A DNA stretch of 64,000 bases from a virus. Numbering within the stretch: the stretch's first letter is position 1; each line of letters begins with the position of its first letter. A program made the position numbers and the translations under genes. The notes beneath the pieces are model-generated. The model was not told the DNA's origin. It saw only the letters and a list, made by a program, of their open reading frames with translations, and searched no databases. The DNA lies in IMG/VR virus record IMGVR_UViG_3300035181_001974; one strand, 5' to 3'. Positions 3,896 through 34,371 of this stretch are shown piece after piece.

Positions 3896-3910
3896 CTGAT
3901 ACGGTTTATC

Positions 3911-4628: not shown

Positions 4629-4720
4629 GACTATAAGTAGGCCTTTCGGGCCCGCGAGTGCCTGTGCACAATCGTTACTCGTTGGGGTAGGATGAAAGTA
4701 CCCTTACGGGAGGTGAAGAC

Positions 4721-5677
4721 ATGGACTTTGACGTCAAAAAGCGCACAATCCTCTACGTTCGGCACGGTTCTCACGCCTATGGCCTGAACGTCGCCACCTC
4801 TGACGAGGACTTCAAGGGCGTTGCCATCGCTCCCAAGGAGTACTACTTGGGCTTCATGAAGACGTTCGAGCAGGCGGAACACATGGGTTCCAAGAGCGAC
4901 GGCGTCGACTCGGTAACCTATGCCCTCAACAAGTTTGCTAGGCTCGCTGCCGACTGCAACCCGAACATCATCGAGATCCTCCACGTGGCCGACAGGCACG
5001 TGTTGAAGATCGACGAGTTCGGCGAAGAGTTGCGCAGCATCAAGGACGAGTTCTTGTCCAAGAAGGCGAAGTTCACCTTCTCGGGCTATGCCCATGCCCA
5101 GCTGCAGCGCATCAAGACGCATCGCTCGTGGTTGCTCAACCCGCCCAAGGAAGCTCCTTCGAGGAAGTCATTCGGACTTTCCGAGACGAGCAAGGTCTCG
5201 AAGTCGGAGTTGGGTGCCTACGATGCGGCAGTCGCCGACGGGATTGAGCTGGACCTGCCCAAGGACGTGCTGACCCTGTTCACGCGGGAGAAGCAGTATC
5301 AGGCTGCGAAGACGCACTACGACCAGTACGTCAACTGGCTCAAGACTCGGAACCCAGCTCGTGCCGAGCTTGAGGCCAAGTGGGGTTTTGACGTGAAACA
5401 TGGCATGCACCTGATTCGCCTCAAGACCATGGCCGTTGAAATCCTCGAAGACCATAAGGTCTACGTGGACCGTCAGGAACGTGGCGACCGCGAAGAGATC
5501 CTGGCGTATCGCCGGGGCGAGCACGACTACGATGCCCTGATTGAGCGTGCCGATGCACTGGAGAAACGTGCCAACGAGCTCTATGAGACCTCAACCCTGC
5601 GTCGAGAGCCCGACCGTAAGCTCATCGACAAATTCGTGGTGTCGATGACGGAGCGGTACCTGACGCTCCACGGCTGA
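4721..5677 (+). CDS. Pol-beta superfamily nucleotidyltransferase (RlaP-like, RNA-repair associated)
   Basis: N-terminal YVRHGSHAYGLNVATSDEDFKGV fits the nucleotidyltransferase GS...D.D fold motif; sits next to pnkp and near an RNA ligase. Confidence 0.5.
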   Translation: MDFDVKKRTILYVRHGSHAYGLNVATSDEDFKGVAIAPKEYYLGFMKTFEQAEHMGSKSDGVDSVTYALNKFARLAADCNPNIIEILHVADRHVLKIDEFGEELRSIKDEFLSKKAKFTFSGYAHAQLQRIKTHRSWLLNPPKEAPSRKSFGLSETSKVSKSELGAYDAAVADGIELDLPKDVLTLFTREKQYQAAKTHYDQYVNWLKTRNPARAELEAKWGFDVKHGMHLIRLKTMAVEILEDHKVYVDRQERGDREEILAYRRGEHDYDALIERADALEKRANELYETSTLRREPDRKLIDKFVVSMTERYLTLHG

Positions 5678-5693
5678 CAACAAACGCAGCGAA

Positions 5694-5723
5694 TCAATGC
5701 GGGTCAGAGACGGCCCGCATTGA
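5694..5723 (+). terminator. hairpin downstream of 4721..5677 (possible intrinsic terminator)
   Basis: tcaatgcggg / cccgcattga 10-bp perfect inverted repeat with a 10-nt loop, followed by tgttgtg (weak U tract). Confidence 0.35.
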
Positions 5724-5763
5724 TGTTGTGCAAAACAACCATCACAGAGAATAGAGTCAAGGT

Positions 5764-6768
5764 ATGCGTACTCTCGTGATTTTCAAGGGCCTGCCGGGTT
5801 CCGGTAAGTCGACCGAAGCCGCGGCGCTGGTGAAGCGCGAGCCCAAGCGTTGGGTGCGCATCAACCGCGATGATTTGCGCGGCATGTGCGTGGGCCCTGG
5901 CAACAACCCACACGCTCGTGACAACTCTCGTGAGGACCTTGTTCGCTCAATGAAGGAAGCGCTGATGCGTCAGGCCTTCGACGCGGGTTACGATGTCATC
6001 CTGGATGACACGCACCTGGTGCCGATGACCGTCAAGAAGCTGCACGCTGCGGCTGCGAGCTATGGCGACGTCAAGGTCATCGAGAAGGGTGTCAATGTTG
6101 ATGTCAAGACCTGCATCGCTCGCGATGCACAGCGCACCGGGTTCGCTCATGTGGGTGAGAAGATCATCCTTGACATGGCCCGTGGCGCTGGCCTCGACAA
6201 GGGGCGCAAGCTCTCCGACAAGGAGTGCTACTACGAACCGCGGCCGGACTCGTTCCGAGTCATCATCCAGGACGAGAGCCTGCCGAAGGCGATCATGTGT
6301 GACCTCGATGGGACGTTGGCCATCATCGGCAACCGCACGCCATACGATGCGTCGAACTGCGACGAGATCGACAAGCCCAATTGGCCGGTGATCCGAACAG
6401 TCCTGGCGATGCACGCTCAGGGCTACAAGATCATGTTCATGTCGGGCCGCGACCAGAAGTACCGTCCCGAGACGCAGCGCTTCATTGAGAAGTACTGCCG
6501 CGTCGCCAACCCAGCATTCACGCAGGACATGGTGGAGACATCTGCGACCATGCCTATCCCGTACGAGCTGCACATGCGTGGCGAGACTGCGCCCGATCCG
6601 GGAAAGCTCGACCAGCGCAAGGACGCCGTCATCAAGCAGGAGCTGTTCGACAAGTTCGTGGCCGGTAAGTACCACGTGGACTTCGTCCTCGATGATCGCA
6701 ATCAGGTCGTCGACTTCTGGCGCAGCATCGGCCTGACCTGTTTTCAAGTAGCCCCAGGTGCGTTCTAG
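5764..6768 (+). CDS. pnkp: polynucleotide 5'-kinase / 3'-phosphatase (T4 PseT-like)
   Basis: N-terminal Walker A FKGLPGSGKST; C-terminal HAD phosphatase motif MCDLDGTLAI; two-domain layout like T4 Pnkp. Confidence 0.8.
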   Translation: MRTLVIFKGLPGSGKSTEAAALVKREPKRWVRINRDDLRGMCVGPGNNPHARDNSREDLVRSMKEALMRQAFDAGYDVILDDTHLVPMTVKKLHAAAASYGDVKVIEKGVNVDVKTCIARDAQRTGFAHVGEKIILDMARGAGLDKGRKLSDKECYYEPRPDSFRVIIQDESLPKAIMCDLDGTLAIIGNRTPYDASNCDEIDKPNWPVIRTVLAMHAQGYKIMFMSGRDQKYRPETQRFIEKYCRVANPAFTQDMVETSATMPIPYELHMRGETAPDPGKLDQRKDAVIKQELFDKFVAGKYHVDFVLDDRNQVVDFWRSIGLTCFQVAPGAF

Positions 6769-20301: not shown

Positions 20302-20622
20302 TTGCATCGTTGTTTCATAGCTCGTCACCCAGCTGAAGCCCACCTGGAACAAGCTGCCCAAGTGGCTCCGCGTGCTGATACCCATTGGTATGGCCACGTT
20401 GCCGCAGATCGCCGACATGGCCGGCTTGGTACACACCAGATTTTCGTTCACGATGAAAGCGTGTACTACGAAATTAAGGGAAGGTGGTCTGACAAGGCGT
20501 GCTATCAGCTTGCACTGATGCGAATCAAGTTTCCTGAAGTGACTATCGTGGTCATTGACGGTGTCCAGTACCGTCAATTGGGTCTACAGTACCGTGACAA
20601 GGTAAGGTGGGAAGGTAAATGA
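20302..20622 (+). CDS. small PD-(D/E)xK-like ORF upstream of dnaE (possible homing-endonuclease relic)
   Basis: IFVHDESVYYEIKGRWSDK...TIVVIDG resembles the nuclease cores of HEG at 22907 ([12 protein letters not shown]...VVVASG) and the relic at 29868 (VYVEVKGWWRDD). Confidence 0.35.
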   Translation: MHRCFIARHPAEAHLEQAAQVAPRADTHWYGHVAADRRHGRLGTHQIFVHDESVYYEIKGRWSDKACYQLALMRIKFPEVTIVVIDGVQYRQLGLQYRDKVRWEGK

Positions 20623-20676
20623 CGCAGCAAGGAAAGGAGGACGCCAAGGGAAGCTCGGTGCGAGTGCCCCGACGAT

Positions 20677-22362
20677 TTGTCGGTTTGCACAACCACACGG
20701 GCTTCTCGTAATGCGCCCTTCGATGGTTTGGGCTATCCCGATGAACACTTCAAGTGGTGCATGGAGAACGGGCTCGATGGCCATGCCATCACCGAGCACG
20801 GGAACATGAACTCCTATGCCCACGCTCAACTGTGGGTCGAGGAGTGGGCCAAGGCCAATAAGGGAAAGTCGTTCAAGTACATTCCCGGCGTCGAGGCGTA
20901 CTACCATCCCGACCTGGAGCAATGGAAGAAGGACGTCGAACTCGCAGAGCAGGCGAAGGGAGACAGGAGGGTTGCGGCCAAGCTTGCTAAGGAGCAGGAA
21001 AAGCTGCAGACCAAGATCATCGCCACCATCGATGAAAATGATGAGACTGAGGACATTGAGATGTCCAACGCCTTGACTGTCGAAAACGAGGAAGAGTCCA
21101 AATCGACCAAACACTTCAATCCCGTCAACCGACGGCATCACCTAGTCATTCTGCCCAAGAACCAGAAGGGCCTGTTGGCGATCTTCGCAGCATGTTCGAA
21201 GGGATTCTTGAAGGGCTTCTACAAGTTCCCGCGCATTGACCATGCTGTCCTCAAAGAGGCAGCCAAAGGCGGCGACATCATCGTCAGCAGCGCTTGTATC
21301 GGCGGCATGCCGGCGTACTCCATATTCCAGGAAATCCAACAGTACAAGTTTGACGAGCTCGACGCACGGTTGCTCAGTGACCCTGTGCTGCTCGAGAAAT
21401 GCGTTGTCGCGGTGGGCAATACCTACCAGCACATGGTCGATGCAGTCGGCGAAGGAAACTACTTCCTCGAGCTGCAGTTCAATCGCCTACCGGCGCAGAA
21501 CCTCGTCAACCGCGCGATCCTGGAGTTCGCTCGTCGCAATGGGCTCAACAAGCAGCTGATCGTCACCGGCGATGCTCACTACTATAATCCCGATCGTTGG
21601 AAGGACCGTGAGCTCTACAAGCGCCTGGGTTGGATGAACTACCAGGAGATCAATCCTGACGCGATTCCGAAGTCGAAGGATGAGCTGAAGTGTGAGCTCT
21701 ATCCGAAGAACGCCCAACAGATGTGGGATGAGTACCAGCGCTCCAAGGAAGGCACCGACTGGTATGACGATGAAGTCGTCTGTGACGCCATTGAGCGGAC
21801 TCACGATATCGCACACAGTGTCATCGGGGAGATTCCACCCGATCGTTCGCCCAAGTTTCCGACGAGGTTGTTGGTGCCCGAAGGCACGACCTCGTTCAAT
21901 CACCTCATCTCGCTTTGTAAGGTGGGCATGGTGAAGCGTGGTCTTCAAGACAAGCCAGAGTATATCGCGCGCCTCAAGGAGGAACTCGGCGTCATTAAGG
22001 TGATGAAAAACTCTGACTACTTCATTTCCTACCAGAAGATCATGGAGCTGGCACGCAATGTGTGCCTTACCGGCCCAGCCCGCGGTTGTTTCGTTCCTGA
22101 GACGCGGGTTCTAATGGCTGACGGCATGCATGCTCCCATTGGCACCATCAAGGTGGGCGACGTTATCAAGGATGCATATGGTGTTGATCAGATGGTGACT
22201 CAGATCTTCAGGTATCAGGTTGATGAGGAGCTGCTAGAACTCGAGTTTGATGACGGTAAGAAGATCAGGTGCACCAAGGAGCATAAGTTTCTGACGAAGA
22301 ATCGTGGGTGGATTGAAGCACAACACTTGACTGAAGATGATGACCTAATCGAGGTTGAATGA
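20677..22362 (+). CDS. dnaE: DnaE N-terminal extein (PHP + palm start) fused to N-intein 1; true start at 20618 in another frame (frameshift)
   Basis: frame A 20618..20710 encodes MTQQGKEDAKGSSVRVPRRFVGLHNHTGFS* (PHP motif), frame of ORF continues NAPFDGLGYPDEH...; N-intein 1 = 22087..22359 (CFVPETRVLMADG...LIEVE). Confidence 0.8.
   Translation: MSVCTTTRASRNAPFDGLGYPDEHFKWCMENGLDGHAITEHGNMNSYAHAQLWVEEWAKANKGKSFKYIPGVEAYYHPDLEQWKKDVELAEQAKGDRRVAAKLAKEQEKLQTKIIATIDENDETEDIEMSNALTVENEEESKSTKHFNPVNRRHHLVILPKNQKGLLAIFAACSKGFLKGFYKFPRIDHAVLKEAAKGGDIIVSSACIGGMPAYSIFQEIQQYKFDELDARLLSDPVLLEKCVVAVGNTYQHMVDAVGEGNYFLELQFNRLPAQNLVNRAILEFARRNGLNKQLIVTGDAHYYNPDRWKDRELYKRLGWMNYQEINPDAIPKSKDELKCELYPKNAQQMWDEYQRSKEGTDWYDDEVVCDAIERTHDIAHSVIGEIPPDRSPKFPTRLLVPEGTTSFNHLISLCKVGMVKRGLQDKPEYIARLKEELGVIKVMKNSDYFISYQKIMELARNVCLTGPARGCFVPETRVLMADGMHAPIGTIKVGDVIKDAYGVDQMVTQIFRYQVDEELLELEFDDGKKIRCTKEHKFLTKNRGWIEAQHLTEDDDLIEVE
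22087..22359 (+). other. N-intein 1 (91 aa), followed by stop
   Basis: C1 after GPARG; block A CFVPETRVLMADG..GTIKVGDVI; block B TKEHKFLT. Confidence 0.8.
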
Positions 22363-22446
22363 AACTCAACTAAGTTTACCTGATCCTCGTCAAATGTCTA
22401 TTAGACAGGGATCTCAAGGCTTACATGAAGAGAGCGAACGCATATC

Positions 22447-22944
22447 ATGAAGCTCAGAAGTAAGACTGTCGTACCGTATAAGGGTGAGGTCGTAGACCTG
22501 TGTGTGGAAAACAGCCACACTTACAACGTGGAAGGTATTGCAGTCCACAATTCGGGCGGTGGCTCTCTGGTCGCCTACGTCCTATACATCACCGACTTGG
22601 ACCCGTTGTTCTGGGACCTGCCTTTCGCGCGATTCCTTAGCGTTCACAGGTGTCTGTCGCCAGACACAAAGGTATTGATGTCAGATGGTTCGTCGTCCGC
22701 GCTTCGAGACGTGAAAGTCGGTGACAGCGTTGTCTCACAGGATGGCTCACACCGTAAAGTTACGTTCACCATGACCACAAAACATGAGAAGACGTACCGC
22801 GTGAAGGTGAATGGTACTACGTTCACGTGTTCTGAAAATCATGTGTGGTTGACAGTGGGTCCTGATGGACAACCTGTGAAGAAGTATACATCTGAGCTGT
22901 CGACGAGTGACGAGCTGTACACGTACCACTATGAGCATCATTGA
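22447..22944 (+). CDS. dnaE: C-intein 1 (22447..22551) + extein 2 (22552..22650) + N-intein 2 (22651..22941)
   Basis: [35 protein letters not shown]|[33 protein letters not shown]|[13 protein letters not shown]... Confidence 0.8.
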
Positions 22945-23872
22945 GAAACAGTGTAAACACTGTGGTATTATGTTTCAGTTCAACTATGAGCCCAACTGCA
23001 AGGGTTCTGGTAGTAGGCTCCATCGCCCGTACTGCACTGATGAGTGTGCCGTCGCTCACAGGAAGCTGATGTCACACGCTCCCATGCCCTCGAGGCTTGT
23101 GAAGACGTGCGTCGAGTACGGCGATGAGTTCTACGTTCCAAAGTGTCACAACAACAGAAAACTATGTTCGAATGCGTGCAGGCACAAGTACACTGCGAAA
23201 GCGCTGACAAAGAATGAGCTCCGTACACTGACATGTGTACAGTGTCTAGGCACTTTCTCAACGAAGAACGTCAATCGCAGGTTCTGTTCACCCAAATGTT
23301 TCGCTGCATCGAGGTTTGACCGCCACACGTTGGTATGCGAAGTTTGTAGCGAACCGATCGTCACCAAGAAGAGCTACGTGCCGCGGTTCTGTTCCAAACG
23401 GTGCACCCGCGAGGCACAGTCACGTGATATGGTTGCTTCACATGTGAACGGACGCTCGTGTTTTCGTTCCGACATCCTAAACAGCCCGTACTTCAAGAGC
23501 TCGTTCGAAGCCGACTACTACAGATATTGCTTGCACCTCGGTAAGATGCCATTCTATGAACATAGGTCTTTCCATGTTGTCATCGATGGCAAAGAGAAGT
23601 GTTACACTCCAGACTTTTGGTTCAGTGATGAGGACCGATACGTGGAGTTGAAAGGTGTGCGAGAAGGCAAATCGCGTTTCTCAAAGTTGCTTAACTCAAA
23701 CGCACGTTCACGGGAAGTCGTTGTGGCGTCTGGTCAGCGCATCGACGTCGTGTACATGAATGACTTCTATGGTGAACTTCGTCGACAAGGTTTGTACCAT
23801 ACGATTGCCAATCTAGAGCACAGGGACTATGCAGGAACCCAACATCTCATCAGCAAGCACGGCCAAAATTGA
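22907..23872 (+). CDS. free-standing homing endonuclease (multi CxxC zinc-ribbon + PD-(D/E)xK core) between halves of intein 2
   Basis: six or more CxxC pairs; C-terminal [17 protein letters not shown] = PD..(D/E)xK motif; nested between N- and C-intein 2. Confidence 0.65.
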
Positions 23873-24566
23873 AGCTATCGAGGTTGTCGATGAAAGTGTA
23901 GAACTCATCGACATCGAGGTCGAAGGCCAGCATACGTTTTGGGTGTCCAACAACGATAGCGATTGGGTGCTGACACATAACTCTGGTGCTCCTGATATCG
24001 ACTGCGTCCACGAGGACCATCTTGTCGTCATGACAGACGGCACTCATAAGCGAGCTGTTGACATCATTGTCGGCGACGTCGTCCTGGGAGGCGATGGAAT
24101 GCCACACGCAGTAACTGCGACCTATGCTAGAAATTTGCGGCCATTCGAGGACGCTGTCTGGGTCAGAGTTAGGGCCAATGATGGTACGTTGGGCCACATT
24201 TTGGTGGTGCCCGGTCACAAATTTGTCAGAGCTGACGGCGTCATCGTGTACTGCCGCGACCTTAAGGTCGGAGATGAATTGATGGCATCATGCGGCAGCG
24301 TTGAGGTCGTATCGATCGAGCACGGTGGTTGGGGCTCTTCCAACGCTAGATACGTCGACCTGACTGTTGAAGACGATCACAGATTCCACGTGGTACCGTT
24401 CAATACGTCCATTCTAAGTGGAGGTGATCCATCACATGACGTCGGTTATTGCATGGGCGTCATTCCTGGCACGTTCCTTGCGTGTGGCGAAGGAGACAAT
24501 TTTTGCAGCGATTGGTGCGCGTCTAAGAGAAGAACAGACCACAGCGAGCGCAACTATGAAATTTGA
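23829..24566 (+). CDS. dnaE: C-intein 2 (to 23981) + extein 3 SGAPDID (23982..24002) + N-part of intein 3 (24003..24563)
   Basis: ...VELIDIEVEGQHTFWVSNNDSDWVLTHN|SGAPDID|CVHEDHLVVMTDGTHKRAVDIIVGDVV...PGHKFV...RYVDLTVEDDHRFHVV then a non-extein-like tail. Confidence 0.7.
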   Translation: MQEPNISSASTAKIEAIEVVDESVELIDIEVEGQHTFWVSNNDSDWVLTHNSGAPDIDCVHEDHLVVMTDGTHKRAVDIIVGDVVLGGDGMPHAVTATYARNLRPFEDAVWVRVRANDGTLGHILVVPGHKFVRADGVIVYCRDLKVGDELMASCGSVEVVSIEHGGWGSSNARYVDLTVEDDHRFHVVPFNTSILSGGDPSHDVGYCMGVIPGTFLACGEGDNFCSDWCASKRRTDHSERNYEI

Positions 24567-24868
24567 GCTGGAGTTGGGACCGTGTCCGAGCAACGTTGAT
24601 GCGGTGCAGCTTACAGACAACGGCGATTCTGCCGAGCAGATGATGTGATAGTGTCTGGCCTGGAAAGAATAGCTCAGACGAGAGCTGCAGAAAATCCTGA
24701 ATTTCAAGATTGTCAGGTCAAACTGCGCGTTAAAGGGTTTGAGCACGATTTGGCCCCCATACTATGGGGCTACGTCGTGCGATGACGCCGACGCCGACGA
24801 GCGCACAATTGACGCCATCTTCTGGCTCAAAGAAAATGCGTCCTCAAAGTTTGACGATGACATTAGCG

Positions 24869-26602
24869 TCACGCTGTGACGTCTAAGACGTAGCGAGAGT
24901 TGCTACAGCCATAGATGCGATAAACGCCGGCAGCCTCCGCTACCTGTTTTTCTGTTAGACCTTGCTTCTTGTTGGCTCGGTACTTGAACCTGTCGTAACG
25001 ATGCATGAAGTCAGTCCACCAGAAGCGAGCGACTGTGGTACCGTTGAACTTCATGCCTGAGGTGGCATAACCGTTTCCTCCCAAGCGATTGTCTGAGTAA
25101 GACATCAACCTCGCTGCATTGTTTTCTCTTGCTATAGCTTTTGCCTTTGATAGCAATTTTGACACCCCGCCTCGTACATGTGTGCCAAGCTTGAAGCACA
25201 GGCGAGCGATCTCAATCGTCGTTCTGTCTGCCCCATTTCGTGCCCACCTAAGGCTGCAGGCGCCTACGATTTCGCCCGATGAGGTTACCAATCGCACGGC
25301 AAATTGGGCCCTCACGTGACCGTCGAGGTGGCACTGATTGATGAATTCTCGAACTTCTTCGGGCTCGCAGCGTTCTGCTTTCAACTTACGCGCATCGACT
25401 TTGGTAGAAAACCCAAGGCGATGGCGCAACATGCTTTCGATTATCGGTCGTTTGTCGCGCCACTCATCCTCAAATAACGTGAAAAGCGATACGCCGGCTT
25501 TGAGGGACAGCAATCTCTTCTTTTCCGCGTGATCGTGCTCAAATCTATTGGCGGCCTCGCTGTGCCAGTATAGGCCATTGCACTCGATGGCAAACATGCG
25601 CGATGGAATGAGTATGTCGAGCTCCATTCCGCCGAGCGTCTTACGATCGCTAAGGACTGCGTCAGGTGCCAGCGTCTGGATAAATGCGTAGACGTCCTGT
25701 TGCCACCTGCTCGTTTTGTCTGACCAAGGCGGAAAGCAGGTGGGACACTTGGCCTCGTTGTTGAACACTGCGCCAACGCAACGCTCAAATATTGTTGAAC
25801 ATATCGTGCATTCGATGCGCGCTTTGGTGACAGTATCGACATATTCGTCAATGAGTTTAAGCTGCTTTTCTTTGAGGCGTTTTTGTACCTCGTCGTGCGT
25901 CAGCAACTTTGCCTTGCGCATTTTTTCAAGCGTTACGTCGCTAAAGAATCGTCCTTTCAACGAAGCGCTGATCTTCTTACTGCGAGATTCAATGATGCTA
26001 GACGTATCCTTTGTCAGGCCAAGTGACCAGCCGCTGTGCGTTGCATAATACCTCCGCAGGCTGTCGCTGATTTTTGCCGCCTTTTGTTTAAGGCTTTCGT
26101 TGTTTTCCTTTGTCTTGTCGGAGTTGTGGTGACCGTGTTCCTTGTAGTGAGCTCGCATGTTTGCAGCACTGGCTGACATGCGTTCGTCATTGTCTTTCGT
26201 CAGGCCTTTGTTCCATGACGAGGTGCCCTTGGACGCGTATGCGTGTTTTCGGCTACAACGTGGACACCGTTCGGGGTATCCTTTTTCTTGATCGATGAAC
26301 CTGACCCAGTCGCAACAATCGATGCACGTCTTCCTGCACCCTGGGTACCTTGTTTCATACACAACGACGGGTGATTTTTGGTGCGTTTTTGTGCAGTGCA
26401 ATGTCAACTTACGCCCGCTGTCATATGACGCCTCACACCACGGACACGCGTAAGTTGACACCTGTTTGGGAGGCCTGGCGTCTTCTCGCCTGTGTCGTGC
26501 CTCGTGGATCTTCAATGCTCGTAGCGTTTCGTGGTTTCGACCACAACGAGCGCATGTAAATTCAACTGTAGTTGAGTTAGGATTCATGTGATGGTCGTTC
26601 AT
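24869..26602 (-). CDS. homing endonuclease: C2H2 zinc fingers + NUMOD3 + Vsr-like (DUF559/EDxHD-type) nuclease + C-terminal GNAT-like domain; inserted antisense inside intein 3
   Basis: FTCARCGRNHETLRALKIHEARH and YACPWCEASY..HCTKTH fingers; NUMOD3-like GHHNSDKTKENNESLKQKAAKIS; nuclease core ELDILIPSRMFAIECNGLYWHSE...D; C-terminal RGGVSKLL...RFWWTD shared with 27288..29087. Confidence 0.7.
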   Translation of the reverse strand: MNDHHMNPNSTTVEFTCARCGRNHETLRALKIHEARHRREDARPPKQVSTYACPWCEASYDSGRKLTLHCTKTHQKSPVVVYETRYPGCRKTCIDCCDWVRFIDQEKGYPERCPRCSRKHAYASKGTSSWNKGLTKDNDERMSASAANMRAHYKEHGHHNSDKTKENNESLKQKAAKISDSLRRYYATHSGWSLGLTKDTSSIIESRSKKISASLKGRFFSDVTLEKMRKAKLLTHDEVQKRLKEKQLKLIDEYVDTVTKARIECTICSTIFERCVGAVFNNEAKCPTCFPPWSDKTSRWQQDVYAFIQTLAPDAVLSDRKTLGGMELDILIPSRMFAIECNGLYWHSEAANRFEHDHAEKKRLLSLKAGVSLFTLFEDEWRDKRPIIESMLRHRLGFSTKVDARKLKAERCEPEEVREFINQCHLDGHVRAQFAVRLVTSSGEIVGACSLRWARNGADRTTIEIARLCFKLGTHVRGGVSKLLSKAKAIARENNAARLMSYSDNRLGGNGYATSGMKFNGTTVARFWWTDFMHRYDRFKYRANKKQGLTEKQVAEAAGVYRIYGCSNSRYVLDVTA

Positions 26603-27445
26603 TCATTTTTGGCGTCCAACAAGAGCGTCGTTGTTCACAACACCGATCTTGCCAGGCGAGATGAGGTTCTTGATGAACTTCGAAACTTTTTTGGGTGGGA
26701 AAACGTCGTTCCCATCAGCAATTATAACTGTTTCAAACTAAAAACGCTTGTAAAGGATATCGGCAAGTTCTACGGCATCCCATTCGAGGAGACCAACGCT
26801 GCCACGCGGACCGTCGAGGACGAGGTCCGTAAGGCGACGATGAAGGAAGGCGACGACAAGAATCTGTTCGTCTTGACCTACGATGAGGCCATGGCCTTCC
26901 ACTGCAGGGCTCCTAAGGGCCCGGAGTCGAAGTCCATCTGCCAGGGCTGTAGCCCAGAGTGTAAGCAGCCGGTCAGCCCGTCGTTTCGCGGCTTCATTGA
27001 GAAGTACCCGGTCGTCGCCGAGTCGATCAAGATCCTCTTCAAGCAGAATCGTAGTCTCGGTCGTCACGCGGGTGGTGTGCTGATTGCAGACGATTTGCCC
27101 AACAAGATGCCTTTGGTGACGTCCAAAGGCAAGGCCGGCGTCCGCGAGCCACAGTCACCTTGGGTCGAGGGCGTAAATTATAAACACCTTGAGAAGATCG
27201 GAGAGTTCATCAAGTACGACCTCCTAGGTCTAGAAACGATGCGGCTCATCGAGCGCGCCATCGAGCTCATCATCAAAAAGGAACGACATGAAAGAGGGTG
27301 GTTTGAGATCCAACTCGACGATGGAACGACACGAGGCGTCTACGGCGACCAACGAATCGTCACCAGCAACAGGGGCACCATCCTTGCGAGGGAGCTCGGG
27401 CCCGGCGATGACATCGTGTCCTTCGAGGTGCCCACAGTGCAATGA
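26588..27445 (+). CDS. dnaE: very short C-part of intein 3 (at most 22 codons, ..HSFLASNKSVVVHN) + extein 4 (DnaE palm/fingers segment)
   Basis: VVVHN|TDLARRDEVLDELRNFFGWENVVPISNY..KTLVKDIGKFYGIPFEE aligns to E. coli [48 protein letters not shown]; later RHAGGVLIA, KYDLLGLETMRLIERAIELI; in-frame stop 3 codons upstream of the first listed start. Confidence 0.75.
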   Translation: MMVVHSFLASNKSVVVHNTDLARRDEVLDELRNFFGWENVVPISNYNCFKLKTLVKDIGKFYGIPFEETNAATRTVEDEVRKATMKEGDDKNLFVLTYDEAMAFHCRAPKGPESKSICQGCSPECKQPVSPSFRGFIEKYPVVAESIKILFKQNRSLGRHAGGVLIADDLPNKMPLVTSKGKAGVREPQSPWVEGVNYKHLEKIGEFIKYDLLGLETMRLIERAIELIIKKERHERGWFEIQLDDGTTRGVYGDQRIVTSNRGTILARELGPGDDIVSFEVPTVQ

Positions 27446-29087
27446 TCCATTGCGAAAAGCTAGCCTAAATTCGCTCCGCGCACATCTCCTTAAAAAGCAC
27501 GGGCTCAATGCGGAGGCTGCGTACCTTCTTTTTCGAGAGCACCCTGGACCGTGCGTTCAGTGTTCAGGGCCGGTCAAGTTCATGACCTTTCAAACGGGAT
27601 ATGAACGTCTCTGTGGAGTTTGTAGCAAGAAGAACTCTCAAGTAAGAGGTGCGCTTAGCCGGAAATCAAAATCATTGCCTGCATGGAACAAGGGGCTGTC
27701 AGAAACAACGTCTGAATCGGTTCGAAGGGCCGCACAAGGTTGTCGTGATTTCATCAAAAAACACGGGCACTGGAGAACAGGACAAACTAAAGAAAATAAT
27801 GAATCTATCACAAGAGCTGCGCATAACATCTCTCGAGCATTGACTGAAAAATGGCAAGTAGAAAAACACTGGACGCAGCACGGTCAGACGTCAGAAACTG
27901 ACGATAGGATCAAACGGCGATCAGAACGGATCGGCGAAGGCGTTCGCTTGAATCATTGGTCTCGGAACGCTAATTCTGAAGATATCAAACGTTCGATCAT
28001 CGAGACTAGAAAACGCCTTATCGAGAACGGCACTAACTCTCCTTTTCGGTTGTCTCTCGAAGAGGTCGAACGGCGAGTTGATGCACTGCGGTCGAGGTGG
28101 AACATCGAAAAATTTGAGTTTGCTGGATACTCAACACCGGTGCATGTGACATGCGTCAGTTGTAACGTACCTGATATTGTTCCCTTTAACGTCCTTTACA
28201 AGGGAAAGGTGTGTTCAACGTGCTACCCGGCTAATTTCTCTCGCTGGCATCGTGAGGTGTTCGATTTCTTCGTCAAGCTCGATTCGAACGCCATCGCCAA
28301 CGACAGACAGTCAATCGCGCCTTATGAGCTGGACATCGTGTCAGGTAACGGAAGGATTGCCATCGAGTGCAACGGTGTCTATTGGCACAGTGAGGCGACC
28401 GGTACTCCACCATCGTATCACCAAGACAAGTCGACTCGCGCTCTTGAGCGTGGTGTGTCGTTGCTACATATCTTCGACGATGAATGGCACCATGATGTAA
28501 AGAAAAACATCATCAAAAGCATGATCAGGGTAAAGCTTGGTCTTGCTACTCGCGTGATGGCACGAAAGCTACATCTTCGCAGCGGTCGTCCAGCCATCAC
28601 CGCTCAGTTCATGGCGAACAATCACCTCGATGGAAACACTCCTTCGTCGCATTCGTTCTGGCTAGAGGACATTGCTGGAAACATTATTTGTGCATTGACA
28701 TTGCGAAAACCGCACCAGCAGACTAAGTGGGGATCTAAGACAATTGAATTGGCGCGGGTTTCAACGGCCCGCGATACCATCGTCGTTGGAGGCATGTCGC
28801 GGTTGATCAACGCTGCCAGGGATTGGTCACGTGAGCATGGTTACCAAAAAATGATCACATACCGTGACATGAGGTTGGGTGGCACTGGCCGGGCGTATGA
28901 ACTATCTGGTTTTAGATTTGATCACATGACGCAGCCTAGGTTTTGGTGGACGGACGGACAAAATCGTATCGATAGATTTGCTGTCAGGGCGATTCCGGGG
29001 ATCGCATCACAAGAAGAGATGGCGATGGAACACAGGCTTTTTAAGATCTTTGGTTGCTCCAACGCGGTGTACGTTATGGACCTGTGA
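27411..29087 (+). CDS. homing endonuclease (paralog of 24869..26602) inserted directly in the dnaE extein; ORF track start 27288 is probably an overlap artefact
   Basis: Zn-finger/NUMOD3-like N-terminus, Vsr-like core ELDIVSGNGRIAIECNGVYWHSE, C-terminal GGMSRLI...RFWWTD...FGCSNAVYVMDL domain. Confidence 0.65.
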   Translation, partial: TSCPSRCPQCNDPLRKASLNSLRAHLLKKHGLNAEAAYLLFREHPGPCVQCSGPVKFMTFQTGYERLCGVCSKKNSQVRGALSRKSKSLPAWNKGLSETTSESVRRAAQGCRDFIKKHGHWRTGQTKENNESITRAAHNISRALTEKWQVEKHWTQHGQTSETDDRIKRRSERIGEGVRLNHWSRNANSEDIKRSIIETRKRLIENGTNSPFRLSLEEVERRVDALRSRWNIEKFEFAGYSTPVHVTCVSCNVPDIVPFNVLYKGKVCSTCYPANFSRWHREVFDFFVKLDSNAIANDRQSIAPYELDIVSGNGRIAIECNGVYWHSEATGTPPSYHQDKSTRALERGVSLLHIFDDEWHHDVKKNIIKSMIRVKLGLATRVMARKLHLRSGRPAITAQFMANNHLDGNTPSSHSFWLEDIAGNIICALTLRKPHQQTKWGSKTIELARVSTARDTIVVGGMSRLINAARDWSREHGYQKMITYRDMRLGGTGRAYELSGFRFDHMTQPRFWWTDGQNRIDRFAVRAIPGIASQEEMAMEHRLFKIFGCSNAVYVMDL

Positions 29088-29105
29088 AAGTACCTTTACA
29101 AAGAC

Positions 29106-29582
29106 ATGGCAAAAGTCGTTGCTAACGTTGACGCACATACAAATGCGGTATCATTCAATGACATCAAGACCTGGTTCGAGCAGCACATGCACCCGGCCGT
29201 CATTGATTTCACCGATCCCAAACCTTACGAGGTCTACGAGAAAGGCAAGTGGGCAGGCATCTTCCAGTGCGTCGACCAGGACACGGCAGTGCTGATGGGC
29301 GATGACTCGTACAAGTTGATCAAGGACGTCCATGTCGGTGACGAGGTGACGGTCTTCGATGAAGTCAAGCAGCAGTTCACCACATCAGTCGTCGACGTCG
29401 TTTACGACCAAGGACCCAAGGAGTGCATCGAGCTCGTGTTCGACGACGGCAAGAAGCTTGTCTGCACCGCTGATCATCCCATCTTGACGAAGAATCGCGG
29501 GTGGGTTGAGGCACAGCACCTAACCGAAGACGACGAGTTGATTGGGTCTAGCAGTGGTTACGAAGCTCGTGGATTGACGTGA
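29106..29582 (+). CDS. dnaE: extein 5 (29106..29267) + N-intein 4 (29268..29579)
   Basis: AVIDFTDPKPYEVYEKGKWAGIFQ|CVDQDTAVLMGDDSYKLIKDVHVGDEV...; N-intein 4 tail (LVFDDGKKLVCTADHPILTKNRGWVEAQHLTEDDELI) is paralogous to the N-intein 1 tail. Confidence 0.75.
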   Translation: MAKVVANVDAHTNAVSFNDIKTWFEQHMHPAVIDFTDPKPYEVYEKGKWAGIFQCVDQDTAVLMGDDSYKLIKDVHVGDEVTVFDEVKQQFTTSVVDVVYDQGPKECIELVFDDGKKLVCTADHPILTKNRGWVEAQHLTEDDELIGSSSGYEARGLT

Positions 29583-29666
29583 GGCGGGCGTTTTGGTCGC
29601 AGGTTTCGCCGCGACCGTGGCCATGTCGCCTTACAGAGACGCAACAGGCCCACGACTCCGCAACAT

Positions 29667-30056
29667 GTGATTGTACGGACGCGCTCCGCTCATCGTAGCG
29701 CCCCTTTGTACTTTCTGCACTCAGCGGGCAACGGGAACGGAAAGAATGGCGTCGTCGACCTGTATGACAACTGGCGTCATTGCATGGACGAGGGCTTCAG
29801 CGAGGAGGAGATCAGGATCCAGCTCACAAGAGAGGCGTACATGATCTTCCATCGTCAATGACCGACGTTGGAGCTCTTTAAGCGGGTGTACGTGGAAGTC
29901 AAGGGCTGGTGGCGTGATGATGCTAGGGAGAAGTTTGACGCATTCGTAACGTTGCATCCGACGCTCAAGTGTGCACTTGTCAGTGGATATGACCTACAGT
30001 TGCTAGAAAAGAAGGAGACGACGCTTGAAGCTTGTGTCATCACGCAGCGTGGGTAA
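29667..30056 (+). pseudogene. decayed homing-endonuclease relic (PD-(D/E)xK core) between halves of intein 4, with in-frame TGA at 29859..29861
   Basis: ...MIFHRQ*PTLELFKRVYVEVKGWWRDDAREKFDAF resembles [15 protein letters not shown] of HEG 22907; far too short for a functional HE. Confidence 0.5.
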
Positions 30057-30624
30057 GCGCCACGTCTACGACATCGAGGTGCGAAATCATCATAATTTCG
30101 TCGCTAACGACGTCGTTGTTCACAATTGCACGGGCCAGGGCGCTCAGCGACTCTTTGTCAAAGGCAAGCCCAAGAGCATCATCGACATCGCGACGCTGAC
30201 CAGCATCTATCGCCCGGGTCCCTTGGCCGCCAAAGTCGATCGACTGTACTTGGAGGCGAAGAATGACGGCAAGGAGTTGGAGTGGGGCGATCACCGCGTC
30301 AACGACATCCTGAAGAAGACATACTCGTGTTTGACGGGTGACACACATATCCTTACTGAGCAAGGTGAGGTTCCCATTAGACAAATCGTTGAACAAGGAA
30401 TGGTGGGAACTAAGCTTCCGTCATACAATGAAATGACGAAGACCGTCGAGATGGACGAAGTTGTCGCTGTCGCCTCAAACGGCGTACGTGACATCATCGA
30501 GGTTGAGCTGGAGGGTGGAGAAACTTTGTCTTTGACTGAAGATCACCTTGTCATGACGCCTCGTGGTTGGGTGCAAGCAGGTGAACTGACGTCTGAAGAC
30601 GAGATTTTGGGAATGAAGTACTGA
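30025..30624 (+). CDS. dnaE: C-intein 4 (30025..30126) + extein 6 (30127..30327) + N-intein 5 (30328..30621)
   Basis: MKLVSSRSVGKRHVYDIEVRNHHNFVANDVVVHN|CTGQG..IATLTSIYRPGPLAAKVDRLY...KKTYS|CLTGDTHILTEQGEVP...; IYRPGPL matches DnaE ALFRPGPL. Confidence 0.8.
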   Translation: MKLVSSRSVGKRHVYDIEVRNHHNFVANDVVVHNCTGQGAQRLFVKGKPKSIIDIATLTSIYRPGPLAAKVDRLYLEAKNDGKELEWGDHRVNDILKKTYSCLTGDTHILTEQGEVPIRQIVEQGMVGTKLPSYNEMTKTVEMDEVVAVASNGVRDIIEVELEGGETLSLTEDHLVMTPRGWVQAGELTSEDEILGMKY

Positions 30625-30630
30625 AACCAG

Positions 30631-30830
30631 GCTACTTCGTCGTGCCATCACTCAACCTCATCATCGAGTACGACGGCGACTATTGGCACAGTAACCCAGC
30701 GAAGCATGAACTAACACCTGCGATGAAGAAGCAATTTAGGCTTGATCAATTATGGACGCTTGCCACAAGAACTTGAGGCTTCACGGTGTACCGCGTCTGG
30801 GAGTCTGATGCCTTGAACTATCACCTCAAA
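30631..30830 (+). pseudogene. Vsr-like (DUF559/EDxHD-type) nuclease-core relic with in-frame stop, between halves of intein 5
   Basis: YFVVPSLNLIIEYDGDYWHSNPAKHE...RLDQLWTLATRT*GFTVYRVWESD matches only the catalytic core of HEGs 24869/27411/31990; no DNA-binding region. Confidence 0.5.
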
Positions 30831-30847
30831 TTGAGGACAATTTAGAC

Positions 30848-31093
30848 ATGAAGATTGATGATTTTGAAGAGGAGTTGCTTACGTCGTTCAAGAACTTTAT
30901 CAACACGATGAAGTCACATACGGCATTTGGAAAGCGTGATGATCTCACGTATGCCGACTGGTTCGACACATTTCGAGCTTATGAAGAGGTCGGAAATGAT
31001 ATGGAGCTCGAATACCATGGTCAACGTGTTTTGAGTGTTGATGGACCAGTGTGCCAACTCTGCGCATCATCATTGAACATGAAAGAAAAATGA
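30848..31093 (+). CDS. hypothetical small protein inside intein 5 gap
   Basis: 81-aa ORF. Confidence 0.35.
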   Translation: MKIDDFEEELLTSFKNFINTMKSHTAFGKRDDLTYADWFDTFRAYEEVGNDMELEYHGQRVLSVDGPVCQLCASSLNMKEK

Positions 31094-31094
31094 T

Positions 31095-31412
31095 ATGAGC
31101 GCAGATCTTTACACTAGCGAGATCGATGACGATGTTTATGGATCTCTAACGCTAGAGATGAACGTTCATGGGAATTTGCGAATCATTGCATATGATCCTG
31201 GGACTAGAGATTTGGTAGGTTGCTGTCAGTTTCCACCCTCGCATGAGGGTTTCAACGAAGCCCAACGATTGATCAACGCTTTGCAAGAATGGATGCGTCA
31301 TGTGGGGGAAAATCTCAACCCTTGCCGAGTCGTTCTAGGCAGTGATGCTTTGTCGCGCTCAATGTCATTACACATTGTTTGTCAGACTCATCGTGAAACG
31401 GAGCGTAAGTGA
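31095..31412 (+). CDS. hypothetical small protein inside intein 5 gap
   Basis: 105-aa ORF, start 1 nt after previous stop. Confidence 0.35.
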   Translation: MSADLYTSEIDDDVYGSLTLEMNVHGNLRIIAYDPGTRDLVGCCQFPPSHEGFNEAQRLINALQEWMRHVGENLNPCRVVLGSDALSRSMSLHIVCQTHRETERK

Positions 31413-32110
31413 TGCCTGACGTAGTTCCCGTCAAGATCCGTGCGATCAAGCGTGTTCCTGCACAGCCTGTGTACGACATCCAGGTCAAGAAGAACAACAA
31501 CTTCTTCGCAAATGGCCTTCTCGTGCATAACTGCATAATTTTTCAGGAACAGGTGATGGAACTCGCCGAGAAGGCTGCCGGCTTCCCGAAGGACAAGTGT
31601 GACGAGGTCCGTCGCGCAATCATGAAGCGCAGCATCTCGGGCGGTGAGGCGGCAAAGAAGGCAGCCCAAGAGACCCGTGACGGGTTCGTCAAGGGTTGCA
31701 TCGCCAACGGTTATACCGAGAAGGTGGCCAACAACCTCTACGACAAGATTCTGTACTTCGCGGGCTACGGCTTCAATAAAAGTTTGTACTTTTCGGAACC
31801 AGTAAATACCTTTTTTTCAGACGGCACGTTCAAAGAGACAAAGCAGCTTCAACACATCGAACCCGGCGACCTGGTCATGTCTCGTGATGAGAATTCAGGT
31901 AAAAACATCCTCGTCCCTGTTGTTGCAAAACACGACCACGGTGAGCTAGACTTGGTAGAAGTGGAGTTGGTGACCGGAGAGAAGGTAAAGTGCACGTGGG
32001 ATCACAAGTTCAGGACGAAGGAGACAAACGAGATGTTGCCCCTGTGGATGATTGCCGAACGGGGCCTCAGCATCGTTGTGACCGATGTAGCAGGCTCTTC
32101 GTCTACCTGA
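31409..32110 (+). CDS. dnaE: C-intein 5 (31409..31531) + extein 7 (31532..31780) + N-intein 6 (31781..32107, Ser1)
   Basis: ...PVYDIQVKKNNNFFANGLLVHN|CIIFQEQVMELAEK...KILYFAGYGFNK|SLYFSEPVNTFFSDGTFKE...TWDHKF; extein matches E. coli GIILYQEQVMQIAQ...VEKFAGYGFNKS. Confidence 0.8.
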   Translation: MMPDVVPVKIRAIKRVPAQPVYDIQVKKNNNFFANGLLVHNCIIFQEQVMELAEKAAGFPKDKCDEVRRAIMKRSISGGEAAKKAAQETRDGFVKGCIANGYTEKVANNLYDKILYFAGYGFNKSLYFSEPVNTFFSDGTFKETKQLQHIEPGDLVMSRDENSGKNILVPVVAKHDHGELDLVEVELVTGEKVKCTWDHKFRTKETNEMLPLWMIAERGLSIVVTDVAGSSST

Positions 32111-33039
32111 AGGCCTACGAAAAACACCAAGCTAGGTGCCAAGGATTCATACTCGGTGACAGTGAGAGTGTCACATGCCAAGTCTGTGGCTTCACGGGTA
32201 AGGCACTGGCAAAGCACTTGTCGGGGACGCATGGTATGAGCAAAGAAGAATACCTGAAAGCGTACCCGACTGCCGCAATCACATCGAAAGTCTCGACAGC
32301 GCGTTTCAAGCATCGTGGGCAGAATTTCGCCTGGCTCAAACGAGCGAAGGCACGCGGTGATGATTTGACTGCCTACAAGGAAAAGATGGGCCGTGCGGTC
32401 AGTGAGGCCATCACGAGCAATCCGGGCGAGAGGAAACGTCGCTCTGAACTAATGGGAGAACTTAATCGACGACCTGAAGCCCGTAAACGTTCATCAGACG
32501 TTGCAAGACTAACGTCAACCCGGCCTGAGATACTCAAGGCACGTGCTGAGCGCCTGGCCCGTTGGCGTGAGTTGAACCCCGATGAGTTCTACGAAAAGTG
32601 CACAAAAGCTGCACATGCTATTTGGCATAGCATTCCGGAATTAGCGTTGTTTGATTTGTTGAAAAACGTTGAAGGTTATGATTTTGTTCATAATCAGGTC
32701 GTCAAGTCAGTTGCTTTTCCAAACAAATCTAAAAGAAAGCAAGTTGACATTGCCGATCGATCAAGACACATTTATGTTGAATTTGATGGAATCATCCATT
32801 TTAATGCACGTATTAAAGGCGAGGATAATTTTGAACGAGTGAAGTGCATGGATGCAATGCTTGATGATTACATCACTAAACATGATTGGACACTCATTCG
32901 AATTTCTTACGATCAGTTCTCATACAAGGATGGCGGTCGCTTCGAACCTGATTGCTTGAAAAAGCTTTTTGAGATCCTGAAAGATCCTCGACCTGGCGTT
33001 CATCGGATAGGAAAAGCGTATGAAAAGACCGCCGTTTGA
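31990..33039 (+). CDS. free-standing homing endonuclease (Zn finger + basic NUMOD-like linker + Vsr-like core) between halves of intein 6
   Basis: CDRCSRL..HQARCQ and CQVCGF..H finger; core HIYVEFDGIIHFNARIKGEDN...LIRISYDQF (DUF559/Vsr pattern). Confidence 0.65.
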   Translation: MHVGSQVQDEGDKRDVAPVDDCRTGPQHRCDRCSRLFVYLKAYEKHQARCQGFILGDSESVTCQVCGFTGKALAKHLSGTHGMSKEEYLKAYPTAAITSKVSTARFKHRGQNFAWLKRAKARGDDLTAYKEKMGRAVSEAITSNPGERKRRSELMGELNRRPEARKRSSDVARLTSTRPEILKARAERLARWRELNPDEFYEKCTKAAHAIWHSIPELALFDLLKNVEGYDFVHNQVVKSVAFPNKSKRKQVDIADRSRHIYVEFDGIIHFNARIKGEDNFERVKCMDAMLDDYITKHDWTLIRISYDQFSYKDGGRFEPDCLKKLFEILKDPRPGVHRIGKAYEKTAV

Positions 33040-33244
33040 AATCGCACTGAATGACATTGCCCAACGCATGGGTCTGAGTCCGATCGAACTGTTACGGGCC
33101 GCGGCACGTTACCGACGCAAAAGCGAAACGAAGGTTGAACTCCAGCCGACTGACGAGTACATTGAAGAAGAGTATGCTAAAGCAATGCTTGATGAACCGA
33201 ACGCAGGAGCGATCGAAGACCTGTTGAAGGACCTGCTCACATGA
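33020..33244 (+). CDS. hypothetical small protein
   Basis: 74-aa ORF between HEG6 and C-intein 6. Confidence 0.3.
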   Translation: MKRPPFEIALNDIAQRMGLSPIELLRAAARYRRKSETKVELQPTDEYIEEEYAKAMLDEPNAGAIEDLLKDLLT

Positions 33245-34371
33245 GTAACATCAAGTCTATCACACCCGTGGGTCGACACCAGACCTATGACCTCGAAGTC
33301 GATCACCCGGATCACCAGTTCTATCTCGCTAACGGGATACTGACGTCTAACAGCCATGCAGTGGCATACGCCATTGACAGCTTCTGGTGCGCCTGGCTGA
33401 TGACATATCACGAGGAGGAATGGCTGTGTGCCTATCTCGAAAGCATGTCGCACACTCCTGCTCAACGTGCTAAGGCGTTCAGCGAGGTAAAGGCCTTGGG
33501 CTATCAGATCGTCCCGATCGACATCAACCTGGCGGGGCTCGGGTGGACCGCGCTGCCCGGCAAGAAGTTGATGCCGTCGATGACGTCCTGCAAGGGTGTC
33601 GGCGACTCGGCGGTCGAAGAGATCATGGCCAACCGTCCCTACAACACTATCGAGGAGTTGCTGTGGGATGACAACTTCGAGTGGAAACACAGCAAGTTCA
33701 ACAAGAAGGCGATGGAGGCCCTGGTCAAGATCGGTGCCTTCGGCAGTATGGACATCGTGGGCGAAGGCAAGGTCTTCAACAACTATCATCACATGCACGA
33801 GGTCCTCTTCGGTTCTCACGTGGAGACCGTGACCAAGAAGCGCAAGGGCGTCGAGGTCACCGAAGAGGTCGACATCGATCACGGGGCGTTGATCAAGCGA
33901 CACCCGAAGTCTGACCCGCACGAGGGCCTTAAGAACTTCTACCAGTTGGTCAGGGACTACGCTGACATCGAGGACTGGTCGTCTTCTGAACGTGCTCAAA
34001 ATATGGTCGACGTCTTCGGTGCTTTGGACGTCACCGCCATGATTGACATCGAAATCTTGGCTGCCTTGGAGAAGAAGGGCGTCAATAGCATTGACGACCT
34101 GGAGCACGGTGACACGGCGGTCGTCTGGTTTGTCACGGCCCCTGTTGCTGCAAAGAAGGGTGGCAAGCCGGTGACGGGCATCAAGAAGAAGACCCGCAAT
34201 GGCAAGGAATATGTGCAAATCTTTGCGGTTGGACCCACTGGCAAGGCCACGAAGATTTCTGTCTGGGGCGGCAAGGAGCTTCCTGACCCCTTCATCCTGT
34301 GTTGTGCCGAGGTCAAGAGGGACGACTTTGGCGCGTCGACGACGGTCTGGAAGTTGAGGGAAATCACGTAA
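33241..34371 (+). CDS. dnaE: C-intein 6 (33241..33351, ends TSN) + extein 8 = DnaE C-terminal region (fingers end, OB domain)
   Basis: MSNIKSITPVGRHQTYDLEVDHPDHQFYLANGILTSN|SHAVAYAIDSFWCAWLMTYH..; LGYQIVPIDINLAG matches E. coli GLKILPPDINSG; KGVGDSAVEEIMANR matches KGVGEGPIEAIIEAR. Confidence 0.8.
   Translation: MSNIKSITPVGRHQTYDLEVDHPDHQFYLANGILTSNSHAVAYAIDSFWCAWLMTYHEEEWLCAYLESMSHTPAQRAKAFSEVKALGYQIVPIDINLAGLGWTALPGKKLMPSMTSCKGVGDSAVEEIMANRPYNTIEELLWDDNFEWKHSKFNKKAMEALVKIGAFGSMDIVGEGKVFNNYHHMHEVLFGSHVETVTKKRKGVEVTEEVDIDHGALIKRHPKSDPHEGLKNFYQLVRDYADIEDWSSSERAQNMVDVFGALDVTAMIDIEILAALEKKGVNSIDDLEHGDTAVVWFVTAPVAAKKGGKPVTGIKKKTRNGKEYVQIFAVGPTGKATKISVWGGKELPDPFILCCAEVKRDDFGASTTVWKLREIT

Follow-up and report, generated by a model that had tools for sequence, protein, structure and literature searches.

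The window analysed here is a 64,000-nucleotide (nt) stretch of viral DNA (IMG/VR virus record IMGVR_UViG_3300035181_001974) that carries a phage-type dnaE gene (Pol III alpha; 20619..34371, + strand) fragmented into approximately eight open reading frames (ORFs), with the PHP, DNA_pol3_alpha and finger domains of the polymerase distributed across at least seven separate ORFs (Pfam). We describe intein 1 of this gene, the halves of which are encoded by neighbouring ORFs. The upstream ORF (20677..22362) encodes extein 1 as far as ...GPARG, then the N-intein (CFVPETRV...LIEVE) and a stop codon. The downstream ORF, of 165 codons, opens with the ATG at 22447 and encodes a 35-amino-acid (aa) C-intein (...GIAVHN), the 33-aa extein 2 beginning with SGGGS, and the next N-half.

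Extein 1 (20619..22086, +) comprises the PHP domain and the start of the Pol III alpha core (Pfam PHP, 1.2e-17; DNA_pol3_alpha, 1.1e-5) and uses two frames, 20619..20707 and then 20715..22086 beyond a 7-nt insert that begins with a stop codon, whereas its homologues use a single frame. N-intein 1 (22087..22362, +) consists of 91 codons plus a TGA (22360-22362), with Cys1 at 22087-22089, T63-x-x-H66 within CTKEHKF, and an acidic tail (TEDDDLIEVE). It is followed by a spacer of exactly 84 nt (22363..22446, +) and by the 35 codons of C-intein 1 (22447..22551, +), which has a basic N-terminus (MKLRSK..K) and ends in block G (AVHN|S, 22543-22554). Extein 2 (22552..22650, +; Pfam DNA_pol3_alpha, 1.7e-10) contributes Ser+1 (22552-22554), ends in ...SVHR after 33 codons, and is directly followed by N-intein 2 at 22651. 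The N- and C-halves share one frame, which holds the N-intein stop and three more stops within the spacer; therefore, no single-base error could yield a continuous intein. The same sequence was recovered in two independent assemblies from other samples (L174, Logan SRR11727985; L175, JGI 3300036715), which were 99.98-100% identical to the window over the stop, spacer and start, and thus the split is not a sequencing error. A preliminary description of this DNA had reported a split intein with adjacent halves, no endonuclease gene and no ORF in the spacer; all of its coordinates proved correct on re-reading, and the only ORF across the spacer was a trivial one of 31 codons starting with TTG (22355..22450). 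Its further wording, that the halves lie in cis, applies to the DNA and probably to the mRNA but not to the proteins, which are separate, so that any splicing must occur in trans.

The extent of the element was given by intein-free alleles (L001-L006), the only kind of allele recovered in an IMG/VR scan with the whole 561-aa piece. Because these alleles read from ...GPxRG straight into SGGGS..., joining extein 1 to extein 2 without a gap, the element is exactly 22087..22551. Both pieces matched Pfam intein/Hint models at scores under the gathering thresholds, since each piece holds half a domain. When joined, the halves gave full-length alignments with two split inteins of solved structure, NrdJ-1 (8ubs, E 7e-10) and gp41-1 (6qaz, E 1.6e-5), residues 6-126 of the joined sequence matching residues 9-128 of the gp41-1 intein, and they are predicted to complete a HINT fold. 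An N-intein profile, used in two scans, identified 160 loci, 134 of which had both halves at the dnaE site, corresponding to 86 distinct variants. Cys1, TxxH and HN followed by Ser+1 were present in all 86 of these, and C1, T63 and H66 were invariant across 20 aligned orthologues. Among 5.8 billion proteins searched, dozens of relatives (45-76% identical, ~560-570 aa) had their C-terminus at precisely the same N-intein position (...DD[DE]hVEV, then stop), so that the stop after ~90 aa noted in the preliminary description is widely kept; the same end point was found in more than 60 diverged variants. Searches of cultured-phage genomes (blastn, tblastn) returned only distant DnaE proteins (~25% aa identity) and no intein match. 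With a block A nucleophile, TxxH, HN plus Ser+1, a conserved in-frame site, and halves in separate ORFs (N-half TGA at 22360, C-half ATG at 22447) as in its relatives, intein 1 belongs to the naturally split class-1 inteins and occupies the conserved GxxRG|SGGGS site of a phage dnaE 'fractured gene'.

The origin of the spacer was apparent from comparison with the closest relative, L008 (and also L014), in which the N-half is 94.5% and the C-half 100% identical to the window at the aa level. In L008 the halves are separated by 1038 nt holding a 341-aa endonuclease ORF (L008 7749..8774). Two blastn blocks link the loci, window 22301-22407 matching L008 7640-7746 at 91% and window 22399-22559 matching L008 8692-8852 at 96%, and they overlap at a 9-nt sequence, TATTAGACA, that is present as a single copy in the window (22399..22407, +) and as two copies, 954 nt apart, in L008 (7738-7746 and 8692-8700). 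The first L008 copy lies two bases ahead of the endonuclease ATG and the second lies inside the ORF, 83 nt before its stop. The spacer therefore reads as the 45-nt 5' untranslated region (5'UTR) of the endonuclease gene (22363..22407) joined to the last ~48 nt of its ORF upstream of the C-half start (22399..22446), and is, by this alignment, the product of a 954-bp deletion between 9-bp direct repeats. The deletion left a 29-codon 3' remnant of the endonuclease gene (22399..22481, +; tblastn and L008 alignment) that overlaps the start of the C-intein and is 83% identical to residues 313-341 of the L008 endonuclease (E 5e-14, tblastn). The endonucleases of L009, L016, L017, L018, L095 and L011 likewise matched this remnant, and seven relatives were aligned over the 60 nt preceding the C-half ATG. 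A new in-frame TAA (22461-22463) truncates the remnant, and the change responsible, AGC to AGT, is silent in the C-intein. In L008 the C-half ATG, at 8740, precedes the end of the endonuclease ORF, at 8774, giving a 35-nt overlap, and the overlapping segment is retained in the window. The suggestion in the preliminary description that the locus may be an end state after loss of a homing-endonuclease gene is thus borne out by an intact sister cassette, a fused spacer and a coding remnant.

An orthologous ORF of 319-341 aa was found in every near relative (68-95% N-half identity), its divergence keeping step with that of the intein, and most relatives have, after the N-half stop, an ORF of 250-350 aa, the 3' end of which overlaps the C-half ATG. 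The endonuclease ORFs of L008, L009 and L011 share the motif YYPDF...VEVKG. Similarity of these ORFs to Phage_endo_I (T7 endonuclease I) was below threshold (24.9 bits vs a cut-off of 29.1), and similarity to TnsA_N exceeded the cut-off only for the L021 ORF (31.4 vs 26.5 bits) and was otherwise sub-threshold; together with the motif, these matches suggest that the lost gene encoded a PD-(D/E)XK-type homing endonuclease. The 5'UTRs of the intein-1 endonuclease genes (L017, L095, L018, L011 and L008; 20-47 nt) also share the sequence ATACCTA(C/T)(T/G)A immediately before the start codon. This motif is similar to an anti-Shine-Dalgarno sequence and might act in translational control, in the manner of the hairpins described by Dassa et al. 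(2009). A mutated copy in the window (22390-22407, ATGTCTATTAGACA) forms a small palindrome.

Loss of the endonuclease was not confined to the window lineage. Among the 86 distinct variants, 62 had an endonuclease-sized gap (≥750 nt), two had an intermediate gap with ORF fragments, 11 had a short ORF-free spacer (<300 nt; range 23-244 nt) and 11 had a continuous mini-intein of 122-144 aa. The nearest relatives of each short-spacer lineage carry the endonuclease. A second clean deletion, of 1015 nt, was seen in L031 relative to L029 (96% identical), and a third, independent deletion, in L176, left the N-half (...LVEVK) continuous with endonuclease sequence (...VEVKGQRW...). Endonuclease loss at this site, as read from these comparisons, is recurrent. 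In all short-spacer lineages compared, no fewer than 26 nt from the 3' end of the former endonuclease gene remain ahead of the C-half ATG, which would fit a need to keep the region in which C-half translation starts. In the L176 locus (3534-5803; JGI 3300010379, Ga0136449_100068606), the deletion joined two VEVK-coding stretches, so that the N-intein 1 ORF extends through 13 endonuclease codons (...LVEVK-GQRWIDASPLTW*), and this piece also has an extra continuous intein within the PHP domain (SAC|LHPQS...LVHN|CIGG).

Taken together, we consider it very likely that intein 1 is a split class-1 intein that arrived as a mobile cassette and then lost its endonuclease through the 954-bp deletion. 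The arrival of the cassette was examined through DNA identities between the window and L008, computed with the 954 nt removed. Identity was 68.8% in extein 1, 93.5% in the N-intein, 94% in the spacer, 97.1% in the C-intein and 70.7% in extein 2, rising at the Cys1 codon and falling right after the Asn codon. Because intein identity far exceeds that of the flanking exteins and switches at the intein ends, the cassette moved recently between polymerase genes that differ by ~30%, essentially without co-conversion of the flanks. The loss of the endonuclease in the window lineage came after this transfer.

Several observations weigh against this reading. L008 is a sister of the window and not its ancestor, and the end-points of the deletion are accordingly deduced from a relative. 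Production of the two proteins and their ligation are predictions from the sequence. No clear Shine-Dalgarno sequence was found ahead of the ATG at 22447, and two substitutions relative to L008 fall within the purine-rich tract upstream of this codon; many other genes in the window are likewise without a clear Shine-Dalgarno. Moreover, the stop and frame change at 20708, within the same ORF, could on their face mean that dnaE is decaying.

These last points would be expected if the intein halves, or dnaE as a whole, had become a non-functional relic after the endonuclease was lost, and the degraded endonuclease remnants in two other intein gaps of dnaE, together with the want of a strong ribosome-binding site ahead of the C-half, point in the same direction. 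However, the catalytic residues are all intact and all extein pieces are open. Both halves together showed 16 synonymous and four non-synonymous differences from L008 (dN/dS 0.058), a ratio that takes in both branches and does not single out the period after the deletion, and the C-half protein was unchanged despite three silent changes. These substitution patterns indicate continued selection for the function of both halves. The interruption at 20708 recurs at the same codon boundary in nine lineages, in which the upstream codons are conserved, and this speaks against decay of dnaE. We therefore regard a decaying relic as improbable.

The window carries an insertion of seven bases at 20708-20714 (TCG [TAATGCG] CCC) relative to homologues that read ...HNHTGFS-P-FDGLGYP... 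in a single frame; the insert places a stop directly after the Ser codon and changes the frame, and the same bases are present in L174 and L175. Of 34 distinct 5' ends, 22 were uninterrupted, and nine insert types (in the window, L001, L006, L018, L030, L095, L112, L133/L136 and L151) fell precisely on the GFS|P codon boundary in the PHP domain. All nine open with a stop codon. Seven end in TCN (Ser), matching the Ser codon before the stop, and the other two end in NCG; examples are TCG TAG TCG ACT and TCT TGAAGTGGG TCT CCA. If the putative landing codon is not counted, gap lengths are 3-13 nt, with all three frames represented. Over the 12 codons upstream of 20708 (RFVGLHNHTGFS), six synonymous positions are the only differences between the window and L001, and the upstream 30-codon ORF remains conserved across the lineages with inserts. 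A take-off codon, a stop, a short gap and a matching landing codon suggest programmed translational bypassing at this site, and a literature search found no report of it.

It was also considered that the short spacer might be ancestral, with an endonuclease gene having been inserted in L008 and other relatives and TATTAGACA representing a target-site duplication. The extra DNA in L008 is indeed flanked by direct repeats, and the model of Dassa et al. begins with an endonuclease invading an intein. Yet the second repeat lies inside the endonuclease ORF, the window retains 29 C-terminal codons of that ORF, conserved even in orthologues of as little as 42% identity, and all nearest relatives carry the ORF, which diverges in step with the intein. 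Since conserved endonuclease coding sequence persists in the window and the near relatives all carry orthologous ORFs, this order of events is excluded by our analysis for practical purposes and we give it very little weight.

Expression of the two halves was addressed through the sequence of the spacer. The spacer showed no significant RNA fold (z -0.94), no terminator and no convincing promoter, with only a weak 9/12 promoter-like match, and no Rfam family was matched anywhere in the window. Because the spacer lacks a terminator, a convincing promoter and a stable RNA structure, both halves are probably carried on one mRNA and translated separately. A single chain that splices in cis could alternatively arise if ribosomes bypassed or read through the 84-nt spacer, in keeping with a stop placed immediately after the last N-half codon and with the candidate short bypass site upstream in the same ORF. 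We consider this highly improbable, as landing on a GAA codon would in no case bring the ribosome back into the C-intein frame, each GAA in or after the spacer meeting a stop within eight codons, and as the spacer is without stable structure. Most relatives, moreover, have a gap of ~1 kb holding a gene, and trans-splicing is for this reason the expected mechanism of the family. Finally, a sequencing or assembly error at 22360 in what is really a continuous, cis-splicing mini-intein, which the preliminary description had named as the finding that would overturn its reading, has a next to negligible chance of being correct: both halves do lie in the same frame and continuous 122-144-aa mini-inteins do occupy the site in 11 other variants, but the two independent assemblies are identical, three further in-frame stops follow in the spacer, and the spacer is homologous to sequences that flank an endonuclease gene, unlike the short linkers of the continuous forms.

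We propose that the cassette arrived with a free-standing PD-(D/E)XK-type homing-endonuclease gene between its N-half and its C-half, and that deletion between the 9-bp repeats subsequently removed the endonuclease gene in the window lineage. One transcript would then give two polypeptides, translation ending at the TGA at 22360 and restarting at the ATG at 22447. The acidic tail of the N-half would pair with the basic head of the C-half to complete the HINT fold, in the manner of the charge pairing described for split inteins (PMC2677866). Trans-splicing would proceed through an N-S shift at Cys1, attack by Ser+1, cyclisation of Asn35 and an O-N shift, joining ...GPARG to SGGGS.... A cassette without its endonuclease would no longer be capable of active homing. 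As a more speculative extension, which we hold to be possible and rather unlikely, the split arrangement and spacer may have been kept by selection after the loss and not as a frozen accident, the 3' end of the endonuclease gene having been co-opted as the initiation region of the C-half, with the stoichiometry or timing of the halves possibly regulated. If this were true, a polymerase made of ~8 polypeptides through ~6 mutually specific trans-splicing reactions could include a regulated step, and the dnaE site, with its continuous, endonuclease-bearing, decaying and endonuclease-less forms, would be a natural series in which to test the fixation of split inteins.

It was previously reported by Dassa, London, Stoddard and Pietrokovski (2009; PMC2677866) that 26 phage-like loci carry a split intein with a free-standing endonuclease, the 3' end of which overlaps the downstream start, and that one locus, gp41-7, lacks the endonuclease. 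In their model, endonuclease loss is step III, on the way towards dispersed halves as in cyanobacterial DnaE (PMC2677866). Like these fractured genes, the window dnaE is a phage replication gene broken by a split intein, with halves in adjacent ORFs, an endonuclease-less allele, and an endonuclease 3' end that overlaps the C-half start in endonuclease-bearing relatives. The host gene is dnaE, unlike the gp41 of gp41-7, and the endonuclease is probably of the PD-(D/E)XK type (T7 endo I / TnsA-N-like), unlike the GIY-YIG or Vsr-like enzymes of those loci. With 84 nt between the halves, no ORF longer than 31 codons and a 29-codon remnant, the locus falls outside the definition of a step-II fractured gene and fits step III, as gp41-7 does.

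Compared to individual inteins, intein 1 resembles NrdJ-1 and gp41-1 (PDB 8ubs, 6qaz) in being a natural phage fractured-gene split intein with a ~90 + ~35-40-aa division and a terminal HN, and resembles NrdJ-1 in the tail motif TKNRG..A..LT.DDEL of its N-half; it differs from both in its distant sequence (E 7e-10 and 1.6e-5), its host protein and a window +1 residue that is Ser. It shares its host family and the absence of an endonuclease gene between the halves with the cyanobacterial split DnaE intein (Ssp/Npu; PDB 1zd7, 4kl5), to which similarity was weak (E about 1e-5 to 1e-4 for Npu/Ssp), whereas the cyanobacterial halves lie at distant loci (step IV) and those of the window are 84 nt apart. 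The continuous mini-inteins at the same dnaE site (L036, L098, L106) have the same blocks, and their halves are 45-60% identical to those of the window; however, theirs form one ORF with a 5-20-aa linker in place of the stop, spacer and start.

New in this locus are the host site, which may coincide with one of the three DnaE sites of Dassa et al., and the probable endonuclease class, along with a readable deletion junction beside a near-identical intact sister, evidence of a very recent horizontal transfer and a count of recurrent losses. The locus is thereby a clean and datable instance of a step predicted by the fractured-gene model and seen once before; the general understanding of inteins is left unchanged. 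The family also comprises dozens of natural, short (~90 + 35 aa) split inteins with Ser+1 that are candidates for protein-ligation tools, and up to six split inteins in one polypeptide series form a natural test set for mutual specificity.

The preliminary description had further proposed that N-intein 1 is paralogous to N-intein 4 through duplication or ectopic homing within the gene. The similarity is real, as these are the most similar N-halves in dnaE (44/88 aa, or 50%, and 76% over the last 38 aa), and a motif, TKNRGxVxAxxLTxDDEL, is common to both and to the NrdJ-1 intein. The DNA alignment that it had recommended for dating the duplication gave 73% identity over 119 nt with most synonymous positions different, which speaks against a recent event. 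Furthermore, C-inteins 1 and 4 were not specially alike (9/24), aa identity was 41-96% within the N-intein 1 group and 40-82% within the N-intein 4 group compared to 27-56% between them, and each family was found at its own site in distant relatives. A recent duplication or gene conversion was thus ruled out by the DNA identity, the unlike C-halves and the separate orthologue groups, and any duplication or ectopic homing would have been ancient. The tail of N-intein 4 may reflect an old conversion, shared with P0032.

The remaining gaps of this dnaE display the same decay series as intein 1. Intact large ORFs occupy three of them (22907..23872; 24869..26602, - strand; 27288..29087), and ORFs 24869..26602 and 27288..29087 match PHROG homing-endonuclease families at 1e-59. 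The gaps of inteins 4 and 5 (29583..30024, 442 nt; 30625..31408, 784 nt) hold only short ORFs with weak endonuclease similarity (VYVEVKGWW vs PD-(D/E)XK type, E 0.07; IEYDGDYWHS vs the 577-aa ORF, E 0.002). These short ORFs are probably what is left of endonuclease genes in decay, representing a stage between the intact genes and the 84-nt spacer.

Inteins 2 and 3 are separated by an extein 3 of only 7 aa (SGAPDID). In intein 3 (23990-26641), a 187-aa N-piece within ORF 23829..24566 covers PT-HINT positions 13-123 of 137 and has an additional Cys-rich tail, the C-piece is just 18 aa (26588..26641), and the 577-aa endonuclease-like ORF 24869..26602 lies between the pieces on the opposite strand. 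The gene is also interrupted between ...LIERAIELIIKKE and ...VSFNDIK (27285-29145), a stretch that is continuous in relatives; the interval covers the end of ORF 26588..27445, ORF 27288..29087 and the start of ORF 29106..29582. Its flanks are a 53-aa segment (RHERGWFEIQ...TVQ*) without Cys/Ser1 or TxxH and a 13-aa segment (MAKVVANVDAHTN), with no canonical intein, and between them lies a 599-aa homing-endonuclease-like ORF (27288..29087; PHROG 3339, 1e-59). Either a non-covalent split or an intein of atypical form may account for this break.

The last intein (31829-33351) starts with Ser (GYGFNK|SLYFSEP...) and ends in ...ILTSN|SHAVAYA, with its N-half running from ~31829 in ORF 31409..32110 and its C-half at 33241..33351. 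Its gap holds a 349-aa ORF (31990..33039; ROS/MucR zinc-finger match, 3e-6) and a 74-aa ORF. The cyanobacterial split DnaE intein sits just before CFNKSH, near this sixth intein of the window gene and not near the first, so that its insertion site differs from that of intein 1; the last intein lies 3-4 residues from the cyanobacterial site.

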